Under the pieces are notes generated by a model. That model ran no database searches. It was not told the origin of the DNA and saw only the letters and a list, made by a program, of their open reading frames with translations. DNA of 64,000 bases. Origin: Oscillospiraceae bacterium. Its GTDB lineage: Bacteria; Bacillota; Clostridia; Oscillospirales; SIG627. Positions 3,290-53,421 of the stretch are shown here, piece after piece (within the stretch, counting starts at the first letter, position 1; each line of letters begins with the position of its first letter). The DNA is taken from contig SVRV01000007.1 in the NCBI GenBank assembly GCA_015064635.1, positions 20,602 to 84,601 on the forward strand, in the 5' to 3' direction. Made by a program: the position numbers and the translations under genes.

Positions 3290-4186
3290 TTACTTTGCCT
3301 TGTATTCAATAAAACGCTTGAGAATTGTCGCCATTTCGGCTCTTGTAAGTGTATCCTGGGGTGCAAGTGTGTCAACGGTCTTGCCGTTTATAAGCTTATT
3401 TGCAACCGCCCATTTCATTGCACTCAATGCCCAGGATGATACCTTATCCGCATCCTCATAGCTTGTTATTTCAAAGGAAACGTCATTCAGGCTGATTTCG
3501 TTATTGTAATTATAGAGCATAACAGCCATTTGCTCTCTTGTTATTTCTCTGTCGGGAGCAAACTTGTTGTCACCAACACCGCCGACAACCTTATTCTCAA
3601 AGCCCCATGCCGCCGCCTTGGCGTACCAAGCATCTGCCGCCACGTCAACAAAAGGAGTTCCGACAGCTTCTGGCTCTTTTTCAAGTCTGTAAATTATTGT
3701 TATTGCCATTCCTCTTGTAACCGAAGCATCGGGAGCAAATTCGGTGTCCGAGGTGCCCATCATTATCTTGTTGTTGTAAGCATAAACAACATTGTCATAA
3801 AACCAATCACCCGGCTTTACGTCAGCAAACTCGGGAGCCTTTGTTTCCTCAGGCTGAGTTGTAGGTTCTGACGGTTTGGGAGTGGGTTTAGGGTTGGGTT
3901 TGGGATTCGGCTTGGGTGTAGGTGTTTCCGTATCAGTATCCGCATCGGGAGTTGTATCCGTATCGGGGATTGTGTCCATGTCGGGATTTGTGTCCGTGTC
4001 GGGATTTGTGTCCGTGTCGGGATTTGTGTCCGTGTCGGGATTTGTGTCTGGTTTTGGATTTGCGGGAACACCGTCAAATATGATACTTGAATCTATCTCT
4101 CCCGAATCCTCCGCTGTTAAATCTGCAAAAGCAACAGTGTTTAAGAGTAGCGAAATAATAGAAACAATTATAAGTGCTTTTTTCAT
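3290..4186 (-). CDS. S-layer homology (SLH) domain cell-wall anchor protein with acidic/proline-rich repeat stalk
   Basis: The real start is MKKALIIVSIISLLLNTVAFA (ATG 4186..4184, GGAGG RBS). The 349-aa track ORF reads through the upstream hairpin. Order of parts: signal peptide, ~25-aa N-terminal segment, (DTNPDT)n and (PKPN)n linkers, then three SLH-like repeats (FADVKPGDWFYDNVVYAY.., FVDVAADAWYAKAAAWG.., YEDADKVSSWALSAMKWA..). Confidence 0.85.
   Translation of the reverse strand: MKKALIIVSIISLLLNTVAFADLTAEDSGEIDSSIIFDGVPANPKPDTNPDTDTNPDTDTNPDTDTNPDMDTIPDTDTTPDADTDTETPTPKPNPKPNPKPTPKPSEPTTQPEETKAPEFADVKPGDWFYDNVVYAYNNKIMMGTSDTEFAPDASVTRGMAITIIYRLEKEPEAVGTPFVDVAADAWYAKAAAWGFENKVVGGVGDNKFAPDREITREQMAVMLYNYNNEISLNDVSFEITSYEDADKVSSWALSAMKWAVANKLINGKTVDTLAPQDTLTRAEMATILKRFIEYKAK
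3945..4052. repeat. 18-bp in-frame tandem repeat (~6 copies, TCGGGATTTGTGTCCGTG on + strand) encoding (PDTDTN)n
   Basis: Three perfect adjacent copies at 3981..4034 are flanked by degenerate copies. The repeat lies inside the SLH gene linker. Confidence 0.9.
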
Positions 4187-4204
4187 TTTTCCTCCAAAGT
4201 ATAA

Positions 4205-4233
4205 ACGGCAGGCAGTTGTAAACCGCCTGCCGT
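4205..4233 (-). terminator. Hairpin (9-bp GC-rich stem) between the 45-aa ORF and the SLH gene; possible attenuator or partial terminator
   Basis: ACGGCAGGC..11 nt..GCCTGCCGT. In the minus sense it is followed by TTTATACTTT, which is only moderately T-rich. Confidence 0.45.
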
Positions 4234-4271
4234 CAACTAACAAATTGTTATTTACGCAAGGAAAACTGTAA

Positions 4272-4409
4272 TTATCTGAGGCTCCAGATTGAGGAATCGC
4301 CGTTTCCGCCAACGGTACCTTCTTCGCCACCGTCTTCAAGACTGGTCTTGATTATGTCTTCCTCTGAAAACTCAATTATTTCAAGTTCGGGTGAAATGTA
4401 CTCTTTCAT
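4272..4409 (-). CDS. Small acidic peptide, 45 aa (MKEYISPELEIIEFSEEDIIKTSLEDGGEEGTVGGNGDSSIWSLR)
   Basis: Below the 60-aa cutoff of the ORF track. ATG 4409..4407 has a GGAGG (extended AAGGAGG) Shine-Dalgarno core 8 nt upstream, and the start lies 13 nt after the stop of the 862-aa gene. TAA stop at 4274..4272 is followed by a hairpin. No signal peptide; strongly acidic. Confidence 0.6.
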   Translation of the reverse strand: MKEYISPELEIIEFSEEDIIKTSLEDGGEEGTVGGNGDSSIWSLR

Positions 4410-4422
4410 TATTTTTTCCTCC

Positions 4423-7011
4423 TTAGTCTCTGAAAAGGGCTGAGCCCGACATCTTATTTTTGATTATTTTATCGGTCATGGTTGTTTCCTTACCGAGAAT
4501 TTCATTGCCTTCAAGGTCAACCGCATAAGGTGTTATAATAATCTTTGCATTAGCGTTTGTATACACATCGGCATTAAGAAGGATTTCACATCCGAATACA
4601 TACTCACCGCCAAGCTGTTCGGCTGTATAAACCGTTTCAGCTGTTTCTGCCGCATTTGTAACCTTCATGCTGCTATATACTGTGGTTGTGCTGAGCTTCT
4701 GTGTCTGCTCAAGGTAATTGCCGTCCATATCAATAACAGTTACCTTGAAGCCTACCTCGCTGTACTTGAGAGTATCAACAGCCGCACAAACAGTAAGTCT
4801 GTTATAGCCTTCCTTAGCTGCCATGTTGTTGACAACAAGGAGCTTCTGCATAATTTCTACCTTTTCGGCAGGAGTATAATCAAAATCATTTTCCTCGCTG
4901 ACAGACCAATCGGTTCCGTTCTCAACATACTCACCGTTTACAAGCTCTGTTTCAAAAAGCTTAAGGTTAAGTCCGAGAGTTGCACCCTCCTCAGCGATTT
5001 CAAAGGATTCCGCACCGAAGGGATTGAAGGATTCATCGGCAGCAAGTGCTTCAAGAACTGCCTGCTTTGCTTCTTCGTTGAATGAAGGATTGTTCAAAAG
5101 GAACTCTTCATCGTTATCGCACATTACTCTGTAAATTGCACGGAGAACATCCTCGGAAAGAACTACAGCAACGCCGTCGAAGGACTGAACCATGAGAACC
5201 GCGTCAAGATAGTTGCAGGTCCATAAGGGGTTAATCTGTTCAAGCAAATCCATAACTCTTACGGATTCACCCGCCTTGATGTTCACGATACCCATGGGGA
5301 TAGTACCGTATGAACCGTAGTTACCGAGAAGAATCGCCGATACATCCTTATCGGATGAAACAAGGAAGTCGGGGTTGTAGTATGCATAAGGAGCATTGAG
5401 AGCTGACTCATAATCCTCAACAGTCTTGAAATTCATACCGTATACAGATGCTTCGGGGTTGTTGAGGTTGTTGTAGATAGCTTCTATAAGGTCGCCCTTA
5501 TACTCAGGGTTTGAATCGGCAAAGAAGGCATCAAGTGCCGCCTTGTCCAGTGAAGAAGATTCATAGAGAGGAACTGTGGGATAGGATATGAAGTTTGTCT
5601 CCTCACCGATGTCAAACTTCTCGCCTGTCTTTACAGGCTTACCGTCTCCGTCAAGAGTTGTCTCATAAAGGTCAACGCCCAATGTAAGACCGGTTGCTTC
5701 CTCTACCTTTTCAAAGGATTCTGCACCAAGGGGATTTGCAGATGAAAGAAGGAGATTGAATACTGCTTCCTCATCATATTCGCCCTCGCCCGCAACCTTA
5801 TGGTATGCACGGAGAACATCCTCTGTAACGGGGATTGCAACACACTTAAATTCTTTAACAAGAAGAACTATGTCGGCGTATGTGAAATTAGCCCATGCCT
5901 TGTATGCGGGAATGGTTGCCGCTGTCTCCATTACGTTTACGGGAACTCCCGCCTTCATGCTGACTATACCTGCGGGGATAGTACCGTATGAACCGTAGTT
6001 GCCTACAAGAAGTACGCAAACATCTGTTTCGGATACTATTTCAAAATCTACTATGTAGTTTGCATAGGGAGCGTTGATTGCGGTCTCGTAATCCTCTGTT
6101 GCAGTATATACCATGCCGAATGCCGCATTCTCGGGATTTTCAAGTGCATCGTAAACAGCATCCACTACATCTCCGCCGTACTGCGCGTTGCCTGCATCAA
6201 AGAAAGCTTCAAGCTCTTCCTTTGTCATTTCGCGTGAATCGTACACGGGAACTTCGGGATAGTAAACGAACTCTTCCTTTTCAACTACCTCATACTTTAC
6301 TTCTGTTCTTTCGAACTTGCCCTCCGAAACCTCAACGGATTCGTAAACATCAAGTCCTACGCTGAGGGGAGCTGAACCCTCTACCTTTTCAAATGACTCC
6401 GCACCGAGAGGATTAGCCATGTCAAGAAGCTCAGCAAGAACTGCCTCTTCATTGTACTCACCCTCGCCCGCAACCGCGTGATATGCACGGAGAACATCCT
6501 CTGTAACGGGGATTGCAACACATCTGAATTCGCCTACAAGGAGAACTATATCCGCATATGTGAATCTTGCCCAAGCCGCACAGCCGGGAAGCTTTGAAGC
6601 GGTCTCCATTACATTTACAGGCTCATTCGCCTTAAGGTTTACAATTCCCACGGGGATAGTACCGTATGAACCGTAGTTGCCTACAAGGAGAACTGCCGCA
6701 TCCGACTTTGAAACAATTTCAAAATCTACTATGTAGTTTGCATAAGGCTTGGTTATTGCTGTCTCATAATCTTCAACAGCTGTATAAACCATACCAAAGG
6801 CTTCGTCCTTGGTTTCAAGTGCATCGTAAAGGTCGCCTATGAGGTCGCCCTTATACTCAACATTACCATCGTCAAAAAATGCTTCAAGCTCTGCCGCTGT
6901 CATTTCGCGTGCTTCATAGGGAGGTGTCAATTCTTCAGCAAACGCCGAAAGAGAGAACACAACAACCGCCATCATAACAGCAAGCAATGTGAATTTGATC
7001 TTTCTGCTCAT
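4423..7011 (-). CDS. Secreted 862-aa protein: signal peptide, three ~225-aa tandem repeats of an unrecognised domain, and a C-terminal ~135-aa module
   Basis: Signal peptide MSRKIKFTLLAVMMAVVVFSLSAFA. Repeats cover about aa 29-251, 252-477 and 478-715, each carrying ELEAFFD.GN, DYETAI..PYANYIVDFEIVS, GNYGSYGTIP.GIV and EDVLRAYH motifs. The C-terminal module resembles the N-terminus of the 1..2582 protein. Confidence 0.85.
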   Translation of the reverse strand: MSRKIKFTLLAVMMAVVVFSLSAFAEELTPPYEAREMTAAELEAFFDDGNVEYKGDLIGDLYDALETKDEAFGMVYTAVEDYETAITKPYANYIVDFEIVSKSDAAVLLVGNYGSYGTIPVGIVNLKANEPVNVMETASKLPGCAAWARFTYADIVLLVGEFRCVAIPVTEDVLRAYHAVAGEGEYNEEAVLAELLDMANPLGAESFEKVEGSAPLSVGLDVYESVEVSEGKFERTEVKYEVVEKEEFVYYPEVPVYDSREMTKEELEAFFDAGNAQYGGDVVDAVYDALENPENAAFGMVYTATEDYETAINAPYANYIVDFEIVSETDVCVLLVGNYGSYGTIPAGIVSMKAGVPVNVMETAATIPAYKAWANFTYADIVLLVKEFKCVAIPVTEDVLRAYHKVAGEGEYDEEAVFNLLLSSANPLGAESFEKVEEATGLTLGVDLYETTLDGDGKPVKTGEKFDIGEETNFISYPTVPLYESSSLDKAALDAFFADSNPEYKGDLIEAIYNNLNNPEASVYGMNFKTVEDYESALNAPYAYYNPDFLVSSDKDVSAILLGNYGSYGTIPMGIVNIKAGESVRVMDLLEQINPLWTCNYLDAVLMVQSFDGVAVVLSEDVLRAIYRVMCDNDEEFLLNNPSFNEEAKQAVLEALAADESFNPFGAESFEIAEEGATLGLNLKLFETELVNGEYVENGTDWSVSEENDFDYTPAEKVEIMQKLLVVNNMAAKEGYNRLTVCAAVDTLKYSEVGFKVTVIDMDGNYLEQTQKLSTTTVYSSMKVTNAAETAETVYTAEQLGGEYVFGCEILLNADVYTNANAKIIITPYAVDLEGNEILGKETTMTDKIIKNKMSGSALFRD

Positions 7012-9086: not shown

Positions 9087-9272
9087 TGTATATCTCCTTT
9101 AAGTTATTATAACAGGGCTTTGCCCTGTACCCACTTAAAACCTTTTTATAAAAAGGTTTTAAGAATTCCAAAAATTTTAATGATGTTTATTCTTTAGCTT
9201 TGTTACCTTATTCTATGGAAGAAAACCGAAGGTTTTCAACCACAATTATTCATTATTCATTATTCATTATTC
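9087..9272. repeat. Intergenic mosaic hairpin element, locus A (argD/argF spacer)
   Basis: Hairpins at 9113..9127 (CAGGGCtttGCCCTG), 9135..9162 (28-nt palindrome) and 9221..9237 (GAAAACCgaaGGTTTTC), plus (ATTATTC)x4 at 9245..9272. The units recur at loci B, C, D and E. Confidence 0.85.
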
Positions 9273-10426
9273 ATTGCTTCAAGCAATACCTCTACCGCAG
9301 CCTTCAGCTCGTCCCATGTGATATTGAGGGGAGGAAGAAGTCTTACCTTATTTTTAGCCTTTATTGCAATAACGCCCTTTTCACGGCAAGCGGAAAGTAC
9401 CTCGGCAACGTCCTTTTCGCACTCGATGCCTATCATAAGACCCGCACCGCTGACACTCTTGACACCGTCGGCTCCGTTGAAGGAATCGAAGATGTATTTG
9501 CTCTTTTCTCTGACCTCGGCAAGAAGTGTGTCGTCAATTCTCGAAACAATGGAAAGTGCGCCTGCACAAGCCACGGGATTACCTCCGAAGGTTGAACCGT
9601 GGTCCCCGGGCTTCAGTGTATCCTTCACCTTTTCGCCAAGCATTGCAAGTCCAAGGGGAAGTCCTCCGCCAATGCCCTTTGCGGTGGTAACAATATCGGG
9701 TGTAATTCCGTAATTCATATAGTTATAAAGCGCTCCGCAACGTCCGTTACCCGTCTGCACCTCGTCAACAATAAGAAGGATATCTTCCTTTTTGCCTATC
9801 TCTGCAATGGCTTCAACAAAATCCTTTTCAAGAGGAAGAACTCCGCCCTCACCTTGGACGGTTTCAAACATAATAGCGGCAACCTTATTTTCCGAAACAA
9901 GACGCTTTACGTCATCAATATTATTCGCCTCGGCATAAACAAAGCCTTCTGTCAAGGGGAGGAAATCCTTATGGAAGGTATCCTGACCCGTTGCGGCAAG
10001 CATTGAAATGGTTCTGCCGTGGAAGCTGTTTTTGAGTGTTATTACCGTATTGTATTCCGCACCTTTTTTTTCTGCGGCATACTTTCTTGCCACCTTTACG
10101 GCGGTCTCGTTTGCCTCGGCACCCGAATTGGAGAAGAACACCTTCTTCATGCCCGTTCTCTTACAAAGTGTCTCCGCAAGCTTTGCGCAAGGCTCTGAAT
10201 AGAAGAGATTGGAGGTATGATGAATCTTACCGAGCTGTTCTGTTACAGCCTTTATCCACTCGTCATCGGCAACTCCGAAAACATTAACTGCAATACCTGT
10301 GCCAAGGTCTGTATATTCTTTTCCGTTTTCGTCAACTACCTTTGCGCCCTTTCCCGAAACAAGTGTTACGGGGAATCGTCCGTAGGTATTTGCGACATAT
10401 TCTTTATCAAGCTCTTGTATACTCAT
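9260..10426 (-). CDS. argD: Acetylornithine aminotransferase
   Basis: 388 aa class-III aminotransferase (DIVTTAKGIGGGLP lysine context). ATGA overlap with the argB stop. Confidence 0.9.
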   Translation of the reverse strand: MSIQELDKEYVANTYGRFPVTLVSGKGAKVVDENGKEYTDLGTGIAVNVFGVADDEWIKAVTEQLGKIHHTSNLFYSEPCAKLAETLCKRTGMKKVFFSNSGAEANETAVKVARKYAAEKKGAEYNTVITLKNSFHGRTISMLAATGQDTFHKDFLPLTEGFVYAEANNIDDVKRLVSENKVAAIMFETVQGEGGVLPLEKDFVEAIAEIGKKEDILLIVDEVQTGNGRCGALYNYMNYGITPDIVTTAKGIGGGLPLGLAMLGEKVKDTLKPGDHGSTFGGNPVACAGALSIVSRIDDTLLAEVREKSKYIFDSFNGADGVKSVSGAGLMIGIECEKDVAEVLSACREKGVIAIKAKNKVRLLPPLNITWDELKAAVEVLLEAMNNE

Positions 10427-11298
10427 TTGTTCGCCCTCTTTTCAACCACCATTGTACCTGCGCCCTCATCGGTCAGCGTTTCGATAAGTATTGAGTGAGG
10501 AATTCTTCCGTCCATTATGAATACCTTCTTAACGCCACGCTTTATCGCTTCGATACAGCATTCAACCTTGGGTATCATACCGCCCGATATAATACCGTCG
10601 TCAAAGAGCTTCTTTGCATCCTCAAGGTCAATTTCGGAAATAAGTGAGGATGGGTCATCCTTGTCCCGAAGTATTCCTGCGATATCGGTCATTGCAATAA
10701 GGCTCTCCGCCTCCATTGCACCTGCGATATATGATGCGGCGGTATCCGCATTGATGTTGTACACATTGCCATCCTTATCACATCCCACAGTTGAAACAAC
10801 GGGGATATATCCCTTTTCGAGAAGGTCAATGATGGGCTGTACATTTACATTTGTGATTCTGCCAACATATCCGAGTCTTTCATCCTTCATTTCGGCTTCA
10901 ATCATGCGTCCGTCAAGTCCGGATATACCCATTGCCTTACCGCCCTTGGATTCAAGGAGGTTTACAAGTCCTTTATTTATTTTGCCCGCAAGCACCATAA
11001 GTGCTATTTCGGCGGTTTCCTTATCCGTGACTCTGAGTCCGTCAACAAATTTGGTTTCCTTGCCGACACGGTTGAGCATATCTGTAATTTCGGGTCCTCC
11101 GCCGTGCACAAGCACGACCTTGACACCGATAAGGTGCATGAGCACAATGTCCTCCATGACATTCTGCTTGAGCTCCTCGTTTATCATGGCGTTTCCGCCG
11201 TATTTCACAACGAGTATCTTTCCGTTGTAATTCTGTATGTAAGGAAGCGCTTGGGTAAGTATTTCCGCACGCTGTGCATTTGTAACATTTAATGACAT
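10423..11298 (-). CDS. argB: Acetylglutamate kinase
   Basis: Start at MSLNVTNAQR (ATG 11298..11296, AAGGAGA RBS). AAK-family motifs VVKYGGNAM and LVHGGGPE. The longer track start falls inside the repeat element. Confidence 0.9.
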   Translation of the reverse strand: MSLNVTNAQRAEILTQALPYIQNYNGKILVVKYGGNAMINEELKQNVMEDIVLMHLIGVKVVLVHGGGPEITDMLNRVGKETKFVDGLRVTDKETAEIALMVLAGKINKGLVNLLESKGGKAMGISGLDGRMIEAEMKDERLGYVGRITNVNVQPIIDLLEKGYIPVVSTVGCDKDGNVYNINADTAASYIAGAMEAESLIAMTDIAGILRDKDDPSSLISEIDLEDAKKLFDDGIISGGMIPKVECCIEAIKRGVKKVFIMDGRIPHSILIETLTDEGAGTMVVEKRANK

Positions 11299-11516
11299 AA
11301 ATTCTCCTTTTAACCGGGGGGGCTTTGCCCTTGAACCCACTAAGAAACTATTTAATGTGTTTTTTATTATAATTCTTTGCTACCCTATCCTACGGAAGAT
11401 TTGCTGAAAGCAAATCAACCATAACGTTTGCGAAGCAAACATTTCACGTGACTTCAGTCACATTTCACCCATCCGAAGGATGGATTTCACTGACATAATG
11501 GCTCCGCCATTATGTC
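11299..11516. repeat. Intergenic mosaic hairpin element, locus B (argJ/argB spacer), including a hairpin/ATTTCAC array
   Basis: Hairpins at 11398..11416, 11426..11440, 11448..11461, 11469..11483 and 11492..11516. ATTTCAC linkers (GTGAAAT in gene sense) sit at 11441, 11462 and 11484. The last hairpin overlaps the argJ stop codon. Confidence 0.9.
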
Positions 11517-12727
11517 CTGTAATCTCCGTTAATCTTTACGTAGTCATAAGTCAGGTCACAGCCCCATGCAACAGCATTTCCGTCACCCGAGTTGAGAGAT
11601 ATAAGTATTTCGATTTCCTTTTCTGTAAGCACCTTCTTGGCAATTTCCTCCGAAAAGTCGATTCCTGCACCGTTCTCGCATACCGCAACCTCGCCTGCCG
11701 CAGAGCGGAACTTTACATCCACCTTTGTAACGTCAACATCTGCACCGCTGTAACCGATAGCGCAAAGCACTCTGCCCCAGTTTGCATCGGCACCGAACAT
11801 TGCCGCCTTGGTAAGAGATGAACAGATAACGCTCTTTGCCACGACCTTGGCTGTCGCCTCGTCCTTTGCTCCGTCAACCTTGCATTCAAGAAGCTTTGTT
11901 GCGCCCTCTCCGTCTCCCGCTATCATTCGGCAAAGGTAAACTGTTACCGAGTTGAGTGCCTTCATAAAGGCATCAAAATCCTCGCCCTCGGCATCAATGA
12001 GCTTGTTGCCCGCCATACCGTTAGCCATTACGGTTACCATGTCATTTGTGGAGGTATCTCCGTCAACACTTACCATATTGAAGGTGTTTGCGATATCGCT
12101 CTTCAATGCCTTTGACAGCATTTCGGGTGATATATTACAGTCGGTAGTAATGAACACAAGCATTGTTGCCATGTTGGGATGAATCATACCCGAGCCCTTT
12201 GCTATACCGCCTATTTTACATTCAACGCCGCCGATGTCAAAGGAAAGTGCTATTTCCTTTTTAACTGTGTCTGTTGTCATTATTGCTTCAGCCGCAAGTG
12301 CACTGTTGTCGCCAAGTCCCGCAACAAGCTCTGCCATGCCGTTTTTAACGGGTGTTACGTCAAGTCTCTGACCGATAACACCGGTGGATGCAACAACCAC
12401 ATCGGTTGCGTCAATTCCAAGCTCTGCCGCTGTTATTTCACACATTTTTGTTGCAATTTCAATGCCGTCAGCGTTGCAGGTGTTTGCGTTTCCGCTGTTA
12501 CAAACTGCCGCTCTTGCATATCCGTTTGCAATATTCTGCTTTGTGACGGTGATGGGGGCACCCTTTACAAGGTTTGTAGTATATACTGCCGCAGTGGCAG
12601 CAGGAGTCTCACTCACTATAAGGGCAAGGTCTCTCTTCGTCTTACCTGCTCTGATTCCGCAATGTATTCCGTTTGCTTTAAATCCCTTTGCGGCACAAAC
12701 GCCGCCCTGTACAGACTTAATATTCAT
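11510..12727 (-). CDS. argJ: Bifunctional glutamate N-acetyltransferase / amino-acid acetyltransferase
   Basis: 405 aa ArgJ family with the self-cleavage region HPNMATMLVFITTD. Confidence 0.92.
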   Translation of the reverse strand: MNIKSVQGGVCAAKGFKANGIHCGIRAGKTKRDLALIVSETPAATAAVYTTNLVKGAPITVTKQNIANGYARAAVCNSGNANTCNADGIEIATKMCEITAAELGIDATDVVVASTGVIGQRLDVTPVKNGMAELVAGLGDNSALAAEAIMTTDTVKKEIALSFDIGGVECKIGGIAKGSGMIHPNMATMLVFITTDCNISPEMLSKALKSDIANTFNMVSVDGDTSTNDMVTVMANGMAGNKLIDAEGEDFDAFMKALNSVTVYLCRMIAGDGEGATKLLECKVDGAKDEATAKVVAKSVICSSLTKAAMFGADANWGRVLCAIGYSGADVDVTKVDVKFRSAAGEVAVCENGAGIDFSEEIAKKVLTEKEIEILISLNSGDGNAVAWGCDLTYDYVKINGDYRT

Positions 12728-12916
12728 ATATATCTCCTTAAAGTTTAGTTATCTTACGGTGTTATTTTTGGGTGAAAACCGAAACAATGCACAGTGCTCA
12801 GTGCACAATGCACAATTAAGGAAGATTTTGCGAAAGCAAAATCAGCCAAAATTATTCGTGATTCATTATTCATTATTCACTATTCATTATTCATTGCATA
12901 ACGCACAGCGTTATGC
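12728..12916. repeat. Intergenic mosaic hairpin element, locus C (argC/argJ spacer)
   Basis: A 5' UTR cassette at 12728..12783 is shared with the GH43 gene. Hairpin at 12824..12843. (ATTATTC)-type heptamers x6 at 12851..12892. Hairpin GCATAACGCacaGCGTTATGC at 12896..12916 abuts the argC stop. Confidence 0.9.
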
Positions 12917-17947: not shown

Positions 17948-17956
17948 TAAATAATT

Positions 17957-17994
17957 GGAGAAGGGTGCTTTTGAAGTCAAAAGCACCCTTCTCC
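17957..17994. terminator. Perfect 16-bp stem hairpin between convergent genes
   Basis: GGAGAAGGGTGCTTTTgaagtcAAAAGCACCCTTCTCC. Neither side has a strong T tract, so it may be a terminator or an RNA stabiliser. Confidence 0.5.
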
Positions 17995-18047
17995 AAACCT
18001 CATCCCGAAAAACAATGTTTGAAATTTTATTATTAATTAATATCCTT

Positions 18048-18126
18048 AATTTTAAAGTTTTTGGAATTCTTAAACCTTTTTTCAAAAAGGTTTAAGCGGT
18101 TCCAAGGCAGAGCCTTGGCAGGGGTT
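18048..18126. repeat. Intergenic mosaic hairpin element, locus D
   Basis: About 75 nt align to the reverse complement of locus A (9111..9180), with compensatory changes in both hairpins. Confidence 0.8.
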
Positions 18127-50600: not shown

Positions 50601-52029
50601 ATCCCCCGATATTGACCTTAACTTCTCGGGTGAGGTTCAAGGCAAGGTACATAAATACACAGAAGAGCTCTTCGGAAGTGAAAACGTATTCCGTGCGGGA
50701 ACCCTTGGCACACTTGCCGAGAAAACCGCATACGGATTTGTTTTAAAATATCTTGAGGGCAAGAATATTTCCATGCCAAAGGCGGAAATGAATCGCCTTG
50801 CCAACGGTTGCGTTGGTGTAAAGCGTACCACAGGACAGCATCCCGGCGGTATCATAGTTGTACCACGTGAAAACAGTGTATACGAATTCACTCCCGTACA
50901 GCATCCCGCCGATGACCCGAATTCCAGCACTATCACAACGCACTTTGCTTTCTCCTATCTTCACGATACAATTCTTAAGCTTGATGAGCTCGGACACGAT
51001 ATTCCAACCAAATACAAAATGATTGAAAAGTACTCGAACACCAACATTATGGAGGTCCCCATGAACGACCCCAAGGTTTACGAGCTTTTCAGATCAACCG
51101 AGCCCCTCGGAGTCACTCCGGAAGACATCGGCTGTCCCCTTGGAACGCTGGGACTTCCCGAGCTTTCCACAGACTTTGTTCAGCAGGTTCTTGTCGAAGC
51201 CAAGCCCAAAAACTTTGCAGACCTTTTGCAGGTTTCGGGACTCACCCACGGTACAGACGTGTGGCTGGGTAATGCGCAAGACCTTATCAACGAGGGAATA
51301 TGCGACATTTCAAAGGTTATCGGAACCCGTGACGGTATCATGCTTGACCTTATAAACTACGGACTTGAAAACAAGCTTTCCTTTGACATAATGGAAAAGG
51401 TTCGTAAGGGTAAGGGACTTACTCCCGAGCACGAGGCGGCAATGAGGGAAAAGAACGTACCCGACTGGTACATTGCATCCTGTAAGAAGATAAAATACAT
51501 GTTCCCGAAAGCTCACGCTGCCGCTTACGTAATGAGTGCCATTCGTATCGGCTGGTATAAGATTTATATGCCCGTATCCTTCTATGCAGGCTTCTTTACA
51601 GCGGCACCCGGCGGATTTGATGCGGGAATTGTCCTTGGAGGACGTGCAAATGTTGTGCGTTTCATTGCCGATGTAAAGGCGAATAAGCACGAGGCAAGCC
51701 AAAAGGACCTCTCGCTCATTCCAACTCTTCAGCTTGCAAACGAATGTATGTGCAGAGGTATACCCTTCCTGCCCATTGACCTTAAAAAATCCCATTCACA
51801 TCACTTCATACCCGAAGGAAACGCAATACGCCTTCCCTTCTCAACACTTGGCGGTGTGGGTGATGCCGCAGCCGACAGTATATACGAAGCAATGAACACC
51901 GGTGAACCGATTCTCTCCGTTGAGGACCTGCGCACACGCTCGGGAATATCCAAGGCGGTAATTGATACACTGCGTGAATTCGGTGTACTTGGAGACCTGC
52001 CCGAGACAAATCAGATAACAATGTTTTAG
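47653..52029 (+). CDS. polC: DNA polymerase III PolC-type
   Basis: 1458 aa with an exonuclease domain (FIIFDIETTGL) and PHP/polymerase domains. TTG start; TTG at 47659 is an alternative with better RBS spacing. Confidence 0.92.
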   Translation: MKLEIEKNSISLAEKLSKYQPEGIKKALLEGIYSYKCGVNKEKRTIVIHISSDKLFQKSLLYEIENEIKAAYDLTACFLLPHYESKLFSEGYYSELITELKRNTAFANGFFDGGKMVLEGNTLTFMLDGGLGKLPQDAECARIISDIIKSEFDLALDVSINDASPFDMDAYIAQSQRSMPMPTAPEKKEEVTREAVYSLMEASPVEESEESEEKSEGGVQSFRSGFMEFDLTEKSVIYGKDRKKETPLCAIKNVFGAEQKKLIAVCGKVFFADSRETRSGDKTIATVQITDEESSVSIKFFCSTEAWSEAKGSLKPGNVLQVIGQADFDKFDNEIVLKPVTVYKISSKKRKDDAPEKRVELHIHSQLSAMDAVIAPADIVSTAHAWGHRAVAITDHGNVQGFPDAMLAAEKLGMKVIYGLEAYFVDDTARAVYGESNASFEKDTFIIFDIETTGLSALTCGITEIGAVKYQSGKILDRFNTFVNPDMPIPQNIVELTGITDDMVKDAPDTETAVKSFLDFCEGNILVAHNANFDMSFIKKASEDYSLDCQNPYLDTLALSRHINTDLKKHKLDTLQEYYGLESFNHHRACDDAEMLAKIFECMCQKLKKEGIANISDMILSMSEKTDPKKLRPYHMIILVKNQMGMMNLYRLVSESYLTYFNRLPRIPKTLLERFRDGLIIGSACEAGELYQAVLAGKGMGDLLKIASFYDYLEIQPLCNNAFMIENGTVPDENKLIEINKSIIELGKKAKKPVVATCDAHFLNKQDEIFRRILVSAKFSDADRPNPLYFRNTEEMLAEFSYLDEKTAHEVVITNTNLIADMVDDEIRPIPKGTFTPNLEGAEEDLQNMCWTKAKSIYGDPLPDIVYKRLDKELTSIIKNGYAVLYIIAQKLVNYSESQGYLVGSRGSVGSSFVASMASISEVNPLPPHYYCPECKYSEFITDGSVGSGFDLPDKTCPKCGAALKGDGHDIPFETFLGFYGDKSPDIDLNFSGEVQGKVHKYTEELFGSENVFRAGTLGTLAEKTAYGFVLKYLEGKNISMPKAEMNRLANGCVGVKRTTGQHPGGIIVVPRENSVYEFTPVQHPADDPNSSTITTHFAFSYLHDTILKLDELGHDIPTKYKMIEKYSNTNIMEVPMNDPKVYELFRSTEPLGVTPEDIGCPLGTLGLPELSTDFVQQVLVEAKPKNFADLLQVSGLTHGTDVWLGNAQDLINEGICDISKVIGTRDGIMLDLINYGLENKLSFDIMEKVRKGKGLTPEHEAAMREKNVPDWYIASCKKIKYMFPKAHAAAYVMSAIRIGWYKIYMPVSFYAGFFTAAPGGFDAGIVLGGRANVVRFIADVKANKHEASQKDLSLIPTLQLANECMCRGIPFLPIDLKKSHSHHFIPEGNAIRLPFSTLGGVGDAAADSIYEAMNTGEPILSVEDLRTRSGISKAVIDTLREFGVLGDLPETNQITMF

Positions 52030-52563
52030 CATAACGCTGTGCGTTATGCAGTGAAATGTTTTGACGTTGTCAAAACGTGAAATTCACCTTCGGTGAGTGA
52101 AATGTGACTGAAGTCACATGAAATGTTTGCTTCGCAAACGTTAAGGTTGATTTTCTTCGAAAATCTTCGATTGATTATAGCGGACCGTCGAGGACGCCGG
52201 TCCCTACAAATGTATTTGTTGCAAAAGTGGGTAAAGAGACGAAAGTGAGTCGAGCAGAAAGCAAAGTATTGCGAAAAAAGACGAAAAAATTTCAAAAGGT
52301 GGGAGTTTTGGAGGGAAAATCGCGGAGTGCGAAGGCGTCGGCGTACTTATGTACGCCAGTCCGAGCAACACGCGAAGAAAATGAAATTTTCACTGATGGA
52401 GAAAACCTTTGGTTTTCAACAAAAGAAGAAATGCTTTGGGGAGCGATTTGTTCGCACTACAAAAGCGTGGGAGTGAACACAGCCGAAAATAAACAACTAT
52501 TTCATTTTCGGTTTTCACCCAAAAATCATCACCGTACGATAACTAAACTTAAAGGAGACATAC
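52029..52563. repeat. Intergenic mosaic hairpin element, locus E (largest; polC/GH43 spacer)
   Basis: A hairpin/GTGAAAT array at 52029..52165 starts on the last base of the polC stop codon. Further hairpins at 52183..52204 and 52348..52365 and around 52399..52421 and 52482..52511. The terminal 5' UTR/RBS cassette (52507..52563) is ~90% identical to the one in front of argJ. Confidence 0.9.
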
Positions 52564-53421
52564 ATGGAAATATTGCAGGGCGCTGACCCTTTCATCCTTC
52601 TTCATGACGGAAAATACTACTGTTACCCCACATCCGACTCACATAACGGATACATCGTTTACGAATCCGACGACCTGATAAACTGGACAGACCGAGGATA
52701 CTGTCTCGTAAAGGATGATGTTATGGGTAATGACAACTTTTGGGCGCCGGAGGTAACCTATTATAACGGAAGGTTCTATATGGTATATACCGCCAATCTT
52801 CACCTTGGGATAGCGGTCGCCGACAGTCCTTTAGGTCCCTTCAAGCAGACAGAGAAAAAATGGTTGAGTGAGGACAGAGCTATTGACGGAAGCTTTTTCA
52901 TCGACGATGACGGAAGCGTCTACCTTTACTATGTGGGATATAACAATCCGGGCGGTCCCATATGTGTAAACCGCCTGTCAAAGGATCTGCTTTCCTTTGA
53001 CAGTGAGCAAAAGGTGCTCATCCGTCCCACTCAAGAATGGGAGCTTGTGACCGCCTACGAATATGAGGGTCAAACCCTTTGCGTAACCGAAGGACCTTTT
53101 ATGCTGAAGCACAAAGGGAAGTATTATCTCTCCTACTCCGCAAATGACTATCAGAGTCCGTCCTATGCCATAGGATACGCTGTTTCCGACTCTCCCATGG
53201 GTGATTTTATGAAGTATGAAAATAATCCGATTCTTATAGGAAGCGGTGAGATTCAAGGCACAGGTCACCATTCCTTTACTACAACAAAGGATAAAAAAGA
53301 GCTGATATGTGTTTTTCATGCACATAACAGCAAAACCGAAATTCATCCGAGAATGACACACATCCTACCCGCAAGGTTTGTAACCGAAAACGGCGAGGAT
53401 GTGCTGAAGATATCAAATTAA
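52564..53421 (+). CDS. GH43 family glycoside hydrolase
   Basis: 285 aa with ADPFILLHDGKYY, FWAPEVTYYNGRFYMVY and EGPFMLKHKGKYYLSYS. Confidence 0.85.
   Translation: MEILQGADPFILLHDGKYYCYPTSDSHNGYIVYESDDLINWTDRGYCLVKDDVMGNDNFWAPEVTYYNGRFYMVYTANLHLGIAVADSPLGPFKQTEKKWLSEDRAIDGSFFIDDDGSVYLYYVGYNNPGGPICVNRLSKDLLSFDSEQKVLIRPTQEWELVTAYEYEGQTLCVTEGPFMLKHKGKYYLSYSANDYQSPSYAIGYAVSDSPMGDFMKYENNPILIGSGEIQGTGHHSFTTTKDKKELICVFHAHNSKTEIHPRMTHILPARFVTENGEDVLKISN

Follow-up and report, generated by a model that had tools for sequence, protein, structure and literature searches.

Three of the four spacers of the arg operon in the window, by which we mean the whole 64,000-nucleotide stretch of DNA analysed here, are 189, 211 and 173 nt long, and each is set between a stop codon and a retained AAGGAG Shine-Dalgarno sequence. 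The 211-nt spacer between argJ and argB holds a row of hairpins parted by GTGAAAT linkers, and the question that it raises is whether this row is a conserved structure of the arg mRNA or a repeat that has come to lie there. Here we show that the array is a modular row of short GC-clamped hairpins joined by GUGAAAU, belonging to the Gut-1 RNA motif family (RF01706). It probably arrived with an inserted mosaic, about 200 nt long, that separates the stop codon of argJ from the Shine-Dalgarno sequence of argB, and it would be co-transcribed with its neighbours and act as a stability or processing element or be close to neutral.

Pfam verifies argJ (ArgJ), argB (AA_kinase), argD (Aminotran_3), argF (OTCace) and PolC, the ArgJ match having been obtained on identical contigs. 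Upstream of the spacer lies argJ (11510..12727, minus strand) and downstream argB (10423..11298, minus strand), the real start of which, by N-terminal comparison with orthologs, is the ATG at 11298, giving a protein of 291 aa that matches the MSLNxTNAQRA of those orthologs. ORF callers, public contigs included, begin argB at a GTG at 11340 (305 aa), the extra N-terminus being translated repeat sequence. Since ATG 11298 is the true start, the spacer is 211 nt long and not the 169 nt implied by the GTG. Beyond the array, the rest of the roughly 200-nt insert (11299..11393, minus strand, from the sequence and its comparison with orthologs) is A/T-rich, includes a repeated hairpin module, AGTGGGTTCAAGGGCAAAGCCC (11316-11341, minus strand), similar to one at 9113-9136, and is closed by the AAGGAG just before the argB ATG. 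On metagenome contigs with an identical ArgJ the argJ-argB spacer is 100% identical, with no strain variation at this locus.

Read along the minus strand from 11516 to 11394, the array agrees base for base with the letters given for it in a preliminary description. It begins with a hairpin, GACATAATGGC-gga-GCCATTATGTC (11492..11516), that lies over the argJ stop codon (TAA, 11510-11512), as had been claimed, and that folds with a stem of 11 bp, one pair longer than had been written. The left arm of this hairpin (GACATAA) is the native 3' end of the argJ coding sequence, stop codon included, because orthologs end in ...AGAACATAA or ...AGAACCTAA. Three GTGAAAT linkers follow (11484-11490, 11462-11468 and 11441-11447), together with three perfectly paired hairpin units, of which CCATCCttcGGATGG (11469-11483) and GTGACtgaaGTCAC (11448-11461) stand between linkers and GTTTGCttcGCAAAC (11426-11440) stands after the third. 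Behind GTTTGCttcGCAAAC come a degenerate linker, GTTATGG (11419-11425), and a terminal module (11394..11418) that consists of TT, the hairpin GATTTGCtttcaGCAAATC (GATTTGC-tttca-GCAAATC, 11398-11416) and TTCC (11394..11397). This module is also present in a relative (L128) and, with other stems, at 9215-9245 (GAAAACC), 12830-12860 (GATTTTGC) and 52147-52169 (GATTTTC, 52149-52165), these stems all being as previously described. Three linkers spaced 11-19 nt apart occur in the window only at argJ-argB and after polC, and 100 dinucleotide-preserving shuffles gave 0 matches.

The predicted fold of the array has five hairpins in the sense direction (z = -6.2), and the antisense strand folds just as well (z = -7.0). 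A scan for intrinsic terminators found nothing within 11394-11516, where the hairpins precede GTGAAAT or TTCC, and the terminal hairpin is not an intrinsic terminator because no T-run follows its stem. An internal promoter was considered and rejected: the sole promoter-like match at 10 of 12 positions, TTGAAA-18-TAGAAT, is the terminal module of the argD-argF spacer, and the idea was not adopted for the present array because its equivalent of that match has a 20-nt spacer. With neither a terminator nor a convincing promoter inside it, the array would be transcribed within the arg polycistronic mRNA and would fold there into five consecutive hairpins.

An Rfam scan of the window returned only two matches above threshold, both to RF01706 and both exactly at the GTGAAAT arrays. 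Under the full covariance model, for which the curated gathering score is 50 bits, the argJ-argB array (core 11416-11492, minus strand) scores 52.2 bits and the polC array (52049-52127/9, plus strand) 59.6/66.5 bits, each covering model positions 1-77 of 77. The Gut-1 consensus, CAaUGAAAU-hairpin-GUGAAAU-hairpin-GUGAAAU-hairpin-UGAAAU, has the three variable hairpins parted by GUGAAAU that are found here, and the AU and GU of its linkers extend every stem by an extra A-U and U.G pair. Since both arrays match it, what had been described as a GTGAAAT-hairpin array is a known motif family. That family was defined from 43 examples, all from human-gut metagenomes, and was rated as certainly an RNA and not cis-regulatory, neither a host nor a context nor a function being given (Weinberg et al., 2010; PMC2864571). 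The window copies resemble it in consensus, in full-model alignment and in their gut or rumen metagenome source. They differ in score, copies behind tRNA or RNase P RNA genes reaching 69-80 bits and those of the window 52 and 60-66 bits; in site, as they lie within protein-coding operons, begin at a stop codon and are closed by a module of GTTATGG, a hairpin and TTCC; and in having neither an inverted partner array nor a PF05635 gene. Anatomy and the Rfam scan together rule out riboswitch and CRISPR readings. The likeness to CRISPR, a constant repeat alternating with variable segments, is superficial: CRISPR arrays have repeats of 23-50 nt, spacers about as long that are not palindromes, and cas genes close by, whereas here the repeat is 7 nt, the segments are self-complementary 9-19-mers in only 3-4 units, cas genes are lacking and the neighbours are arg genes and polC.

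A comparison of this spacer across relatives bears on the age of the array. In L125, L126 and L127 (ArgJ 87%, 87% and 83% identical) argC-argJ-argB-argD-argF is compact, with spacers of 0-15 nt and no array, and in the orthologs 10-13 nt separate the argJ stop codon from the argB ATG; in L133 (ArgJ 95%) the argJ-argB spacer is 38 nt long, again without an array. The argJ-argB spacers of these four relatives, at 10-38 nt, contrast with the 211 nt of the window. In L128 and L132 (ArgJ 93%) a different array follows argJ, made up of a hairpin, (ATGCAGA)n, ATTTAGG and a terminal hairpin, and downstream of it lie a small PF05635 gene and then a second, inverted array; the argC-argJ junction of L132 is compact. 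Because it is absent at 83-95% ArgJ identity and a different array is present at 93%, we regard the argJ-argB array as a young insertion of a dispersed, recombining repeat. The arrays of the window's arg operon are, to judge from these sequence comparisons, young and fast-turning insertions and not conserved operon structures.

At least four related arrays lie in the 64 kb, three of the four in the arg operon, and their units, 5' hairpins and terminal modules are held in common piecemeal, in differing combinations. The sister array after polC (52029..52169, plus strand) has a 5' hairpin, GCATAACGC-tgt-GCGTTATGC, that begins at the G of the TAG stop codon, and continues with four linker-plus-hairpin units, GTTAAGG and the terminal hairpin GATTTTC-ttc-GAAAATC (52149-52165). 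It shares with the argJ-argB array the last two units, the linkers and the beginning of the terminal module, so the identity of units and linkers previously claimed for the two loci stands over 64 nt (11408-11471) at 94%, except that one polC linker reads ATGAAAT and not GTGAAAT. The argC-argJ spacer holds a hairpin-less relative (12830..12916, minus strand): its 5' hairpin, again GCATAACGC-tgt-GCGTTATGC, is 96% identical to 52029-52055 of the polC array, and is followed by six (A/G)TGAATA-type heptamers of one repeat family, TTTTGGC, the terminal hairpin GATTTTGC-tttc-GCAAAATC and TTCC. A second hairpin-less relative, recognised from the sequence and from orthologs, fills the argD-argF spacer (9215..9285, minus strand) with the native argD palindrome TTGCTTgaAGCAA, four ATGAATA heptamers, ATTGTGG, the terminal hairpin GAAAACC-ttc-GGTTTTC and TTCC. 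There the element is joined at the native 'palindrome + ATGAA', and the ArgD C-terminus changes from ..AMKG* to ..AMNNE*.

The tandem heptamers without interleaved hairpins, (ATGAATA)n or RTGAATA (9245-9285 and 12851-12905, minus strand), are framed by a 5' hairpin of the Gut-1-array type and a GG-hairpin-TTCC terminal module. Since L128 has (ATGCAGA)n at 1385-1450 in place of (ATGAATA)n, heptamer identity varies within one architecture. The TGAAT heptamers were also considered as ARG boxes (ArgR operators), a reading set aside since they are direct repeats without palindromic symmetry and since polC is followed by the same architecture. The cassette-like swapping of hairpin units noted in the preliminary description is borne out in that units are common to the two GTGAAAT loci, but it is what one would expect of a dispersed repeat that recombines at its constant linkers: the shuffling of units probably arose by recombination or template switching at the constant 7 nt among dispersed copies.

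Other repeated elements were seen in the window. A leader of about 60 nt, TTTCGGTTTTCACCCAAAAAT..ACCGTA.GATAACTAAACTT.AAGGAGA.ATA.ATG, occurs at 12728-12784 and 52506-52565 with 81-100% identity, preceding argJ and the GH43 gene after polC; it contains a ribosome-binding site and belongs to the same mosaic as a 'portable' 5' UTR module. The approximately 340 nt between the polC array and this leader (52170-52505) have no convincing ORF or Rfam match, a 119-aa ORF at 52227-52586 had no match in a Pfam search, and a portion starting at 52381 (AAATGAAATTTTCAC..hairpin..) is found again before argJ in L128 (1-170), the relative with 93% ArgJ identity. Two small intergenic modules, an A/T-rich palindrome AAAACCTTTTT.TAAAAAGGTTTT with TTTTGGAATTCTTAA before it and a hairpin AGTGGGT.CA.GGGCAAAGCCC, were found at 9139-9180 with 18052-18093 and at 9113-9136 with 11316-11341, and also in the 95% relative (L133, 1-60). 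A perfect 19-bp palindrome, GGAGAAGGGTGCTTTTGA..TCAAAAGCACCCTTCTCC (17955-17996), between convergent genes gave spurious sub-threshold microRNA matches on both strands and is probably a bidirectional terminator. An 18-nt tandem repeat in five copies (3927-4052) and 678-nt repeats of 71-76% identity (5249-6712) fall inside the large minus-strand ORFs 3290-4339 and 4423-7011, which look like proteins with repeated domains.

Beyond the window, a pattern scan of one genome per species gave 120 loci, from which filtering for palindromic units yielded 112 arrays, mostly in MAGs of gut or rumen Clostridia, with a few in Akkermansia and Bacteroidaceae bins and some on viral contigs; several lie at contig ends, and one MAG supplies several loci. 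The arrays in Akkermansia or Akkermansiaceae bins (L003, L007 and L056) and in a Bacteroidaceae bin (L002) are true GTGAAAT-hairpin arrays, with a PF05635 homolog 2.9 kb from the array in L003, and those in bins of other phyla reflect either horizontal spread or mis-binning. One contig of 5.3 kb (L109) ends in 99% identical direct repeats (1-103 and 5172-5274) with a Gut-1-type array, perhaps because it is a circle of about 5.17 kb or because the assembly broke off at a repeat. BLAST of the argJ-argB array against plasmids and phages gave no match, and a metagenome scan with the species-specific pattern GTGAAAT-N-RTGAAAT-N-GTTAWGGTTGA was set aside, its 3 matches being chance only and without palindromes. 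The survey and the relatives of the window's operon together place Gut-1 in gut and rumen genomes of Clostridia, of the Oscillospirales type, as an insertion-polymorphic repeat.

The canonical context of the family is a different one from that in the arg operon. The matches that score highest for Gut-1 (69-80 bits) come immediately after tRNA genes or, in one case, after RNase P RNA; all 22 arrays with a tRNA within 150 nt on the 5' side are on the strand of that tRNA (22/22). When the 332 ORFs within 2.5 kb of arrays were clustered without bias, one recurrent small family emerged, PF05635/TIGR02436 (the four-helix-bundle or '23S rRNA IVS' protein), which adjoins the array in 12 of 14 loci; no HUH, RAYT or other recurrent transposase-like family was found among these ORFs. 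A gene-first search with PF05635 returned the same layout in 8 of 8 distinct contexts: tRNA-CCA, terminator, Gut-1 array, inverted array, a TTATAGACA-17-TATAAT promoter and the PF05635 gene. The canonical array forms part of this layout in L006, L036, L051, L063, L116, L256-L273, L254 and L255 (for example L258, 629-1473). L258 and L262 have 843 of 845 nt in common, and because this identity starts exactly at the CCA of two different tRNAs, the layout represents a discrete cassette, of which the Gut-1 array is the hypervariable part. In 33 of 45 canonical arrays a covarying perfect complement of 8-12 nt encloses the array (e.g. L028, 205-300), pairing the 5' flank (GAAAT and the 5' arm of hairpin 1) with the segment right after the last unit; this complement makes a long-range helix, or an inverted repeat, in competition with hairpin 1, and the 77-position Rfam consensus stops short of it. 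Canonical Gut-1 is physically linked with the 3' ends of tRNAs and with the PF05635 protein (23S IVS protein, a relative of DGR Avd); our literature search found no earlier paper connecting this protein with Gut-1.

The argJ-argB copy departs from this layout. Its array is unidirectional, the window has no detectable tRNA and no PF05635 homolog by tblastn, and the PF05635 cassette contigs gave no similarity to it. Since the window has neither a tRNA nor the PF05635 gene, its arrays are gene-less solo copies, and because the argJ-argB copy has only the linker-and-hairpin grammar in common with the cassette, it is at most a solo derivative. The family would then spread as intergenic DNA, with the canonical form part of a PF05635 cassette behind tRNA genes and the arg copy a gene-less 'solo' offspring of it.

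Whether the hairpins are selected for pairing, and in which molecule, can be approached through the units themselves. They are 9-19 nt long, with 221-285 distinct stem sequences, and only the linker and the loop-closing C-G are conserved. Among 32 distinct 15-nt units, 98.8% of cells are paired, compared with 66.2% in shuffles, and slid registers reduce pairing to 23-50%. Double-sided changes number 88 cells against 24.8 expected, a value reached in 0 of 500 shuffles; they occur in five of the six inner pairs, and the A-U and U.G pairs are invariant in 32/32 units. The rows of this comparison are shuffled units and not orthologous positions. Hairpin pairing is hence maintained across hundreds of unit sequences, and the statement that stems stay paired while their sequences differ passes the covariation check that had been proposed for it. 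The inference drawn from it, a classic signature of selection on RNA structure, is not supported as specific to the RNA of the arg operon: G.U wobble, which alone tells an RNA palindrome from a DNA one, is not enriched on the GUGAAAU strand (12 G.U vs 21 A.C in 1371 stem cells, p=0.16), and the array is missing from the orthologous spacers of relatives. The preliminary description had named loss of covariation support, or absence from such spacers with no effect on expression, as grounds for giving up the claim, and the outcome is divided, since the array is absent in relatives yet covariation is supported. Template-switch 'correction' of quasi-palindromes is an established DNA-level alternative, and the data fit selection for pairing in RNA or in single-stranded DNA alike, RNA-specificity not being demonstrable from them.

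A rather unlikely but serious alternative is that the arrays are primarily DNA-level elements, either substrates or ends for single-strand recombinases or transposases (REP/RAYT-like or IS200/IS605-like) or sites for the PF05635 protein, with RNA folding incidental. The loops are consistent with this, being limited to TNC or TNNC, closed by 5'C-G3' in 165 of 221 units, such that the complementary strand carries C-GNA-G and C-GNNA-G, which we take to be the DNA mini-hairpin loops of exceptional stability described by Hirao and Yoshizawa. The lack of wobble enrichment points the same way, as do the sharp cassette boundaries exactly at the tRNA CCA end, the inverted repeats that enclose canonical arrays, and the position of arrays beside pre-existing hairpins (terminators, and the native argD palindrome). 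However, neither an HUH enzyme nor any other transposase is found among the 332 flanking ORFs, the unit sequences are too variable for sequence-specific hairpin recognition of the REP type, and a DNA-level element does not predict a bias towards gene sense unless this is tied to replication. Such a bias exists: among arrays without a paired opposite-strand array and with an ORF no more than 150 nt upstream, 24 are in the same sense as the ORF and 6 opposite. GC skew in the window follows the coding strand and shows no origin, with a weak hint that the two arrays are opposite relative to replication.

That the array is a cis-acting structure of the arg mRNA, kept by selection on RNA folding and controlling the processing or expression of the downstream arg genes, we consider improbable. 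It would explain the pairing kept through many double changes, the sense orientation of an array that overlaps the argJ stop codon, the recurrence of related arrays in three arg spacers and the 24-to-6 bias, and the invariant U.G, with the A-U, can lengthen every stem on the GUGAAAU strand only. Against this stand the absence of the array from the spacers of relatives with 83-95% ArgJ identity and the different array at 93%, the presence of the same units after polC, the missing G.U enrichment, and a canonical context behind tRNA terminators and not in mRNAs. The sense orientation emphasised in the preliminary description is true of both window arrays, but in the wider family one element can contain arrays that face both ways. 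That the array is a small non-coding RNA gene in its own right, as the Rfam type of RF01706 ('Gene; sRNA') might suggest, is very improbable, for the window copy fills an intercistronic gap whose start falls within the stop codon of argJ, it lacks a promoter-like site before it and a terminator after it, and elsewhere the array comes directly after tRNA gene terminators.

Returning to a Gut-1 copy inserted in the arg operon and transcribed with it, known repeat systems suggest what it may do. The REP/BIME elements of enterobacteria are extragenic palindromes known to stabilise upstream mRNA segments. Like the window arrays, they are mosaics of short modules in intercistronic or 3' regions that are co-transcribed (for the window array, a prediction) and differ in their copies between strains. 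REPs, in contrast, are one conserved imperfect palindrome, repeated genome-wide, with a 5' GTAG-type tetranucleotide and a cognate RAYT (Y1/HUH) transposase gene that the repeats flank, whereas here the stems vary (221-285 distinct sequences) and the 7-nt linker is conserved; BIME units alternate in orientation, and the window arrays are unidirectional. The BOX elements of Streptococcus pneumoniae, with the structure A-(B)n-C, can affect the expression of neighbouring genes. They too are intergenic, with constant 5' and 3' modules around internal units that vary in number and with a predicted stable fold, but BOX modules are 45-59 nt long and conserved in sequence, the present hairpins are 9-19 nt and free in sequence, and there is no sequence similarity. 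The STRRs, heptanucleotide tandem repeats in the intergenic and intra-operon spacers of heterocystous cyanobacteria, are, as tandem heptamers, a possible parallel to the (ATGAATA)n and (ATGCAGA)n relatives, but they have no interleaved hairpins or common flanking modules and belong to an unrelated phylum. A fourth comparison concerns the cassette: the S23p/PF05635 ORF is carried on selfish intervening sequences (IVSs) of 23S rRNA, for example in Coxiella (PMC4990558). Cassette and IVS share the PF05635/TIGR02436 protein, and both are small elements bordered by complementary sequences at stable-RNA genes. The IVSs, however, interrupt helices of 23S rRNA, and RNase III removes them by cutting at a long terminal stem, whereas the cassettes follow the tRNA CCA end with their own promoter and heptamer or hairpin arrays, and the window arrays have no ORF.

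By analogy with REP/BIME or BOX, the five hairpins would most likely act as a barrier to 3'-to-5' exonucleases that protects the upstream segment, and the array would serve as a spacer uncoupling the translation of argJ from that of argB. The outcome would be segmental mRNA stability or processing rather than arginine-specific regulation, an effect with which the 24-to-6 sense bias behind ORFs is compatible, and the array may also be nearly neutral. Several findings pull against this account. No transposase or other mobilising enzyme was found among the flanking ORFs, and the link to the cassette as a solo derivative rests on common grammar and on L128/L132. Three of four window arrays lie in one operon, which could mean selection for arg expression, and the orientation bias and the conserved U.G at the stem bases fit a role at the RNA level. 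The right arm of the 5' hairpin complements native argJ coding sequence, a feature for which simple cut-and-paste insertion fails.

We tentatively go one step further and propose, as an idea somewhat more apt to fail than to hold in all its parts, that Gut-1 supplies the cis part of a small and hitherto undescribed mobile cassette of roughly 0.65-0.85 kb, this proposal covering layout, behaviour and an array-binding or array-propagating protein jointly. Such a cassette would comprise its own terminator, a hypervariable Gut-1 array inside a covarying inverted repeat or long-range helix, an inverted second array, a sigma-70 promoter and a four-helix-bundle gene (PF05635, Avd/S23p-like), and it would lodge exactly after the tRNA CCA end and beside other hairpins. 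The role of binding or propagating the arrays would fall to the four-helix-bundle protein, and gene-less heptamer or hairpin arrays such as those of the arg operon would be non-autonomous offshoots.

For the organism, the long spacers of the arg operon are explained as recent repeat insertions and not as conserved regulators. More generally, palindrome 'covariation' among the copies of a dispersed repeat is a warning against taking such a pattern as proof of selection at the RNA level. Gut-1 has been without a host, context or function since 2010, and its insertion polymorphism and its linkage to tRNA genes and PF05635 are now seen. Two questions become testable, namely whether the PF05635 protein binds GUGAAAU-hairpin arrays and whether an array affects the fate of the mRNA that carries it. 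If true, the cassette proposal would for the first time set two long-standing orphans, Gut-1 and the PF05635 protein, in a functional context.
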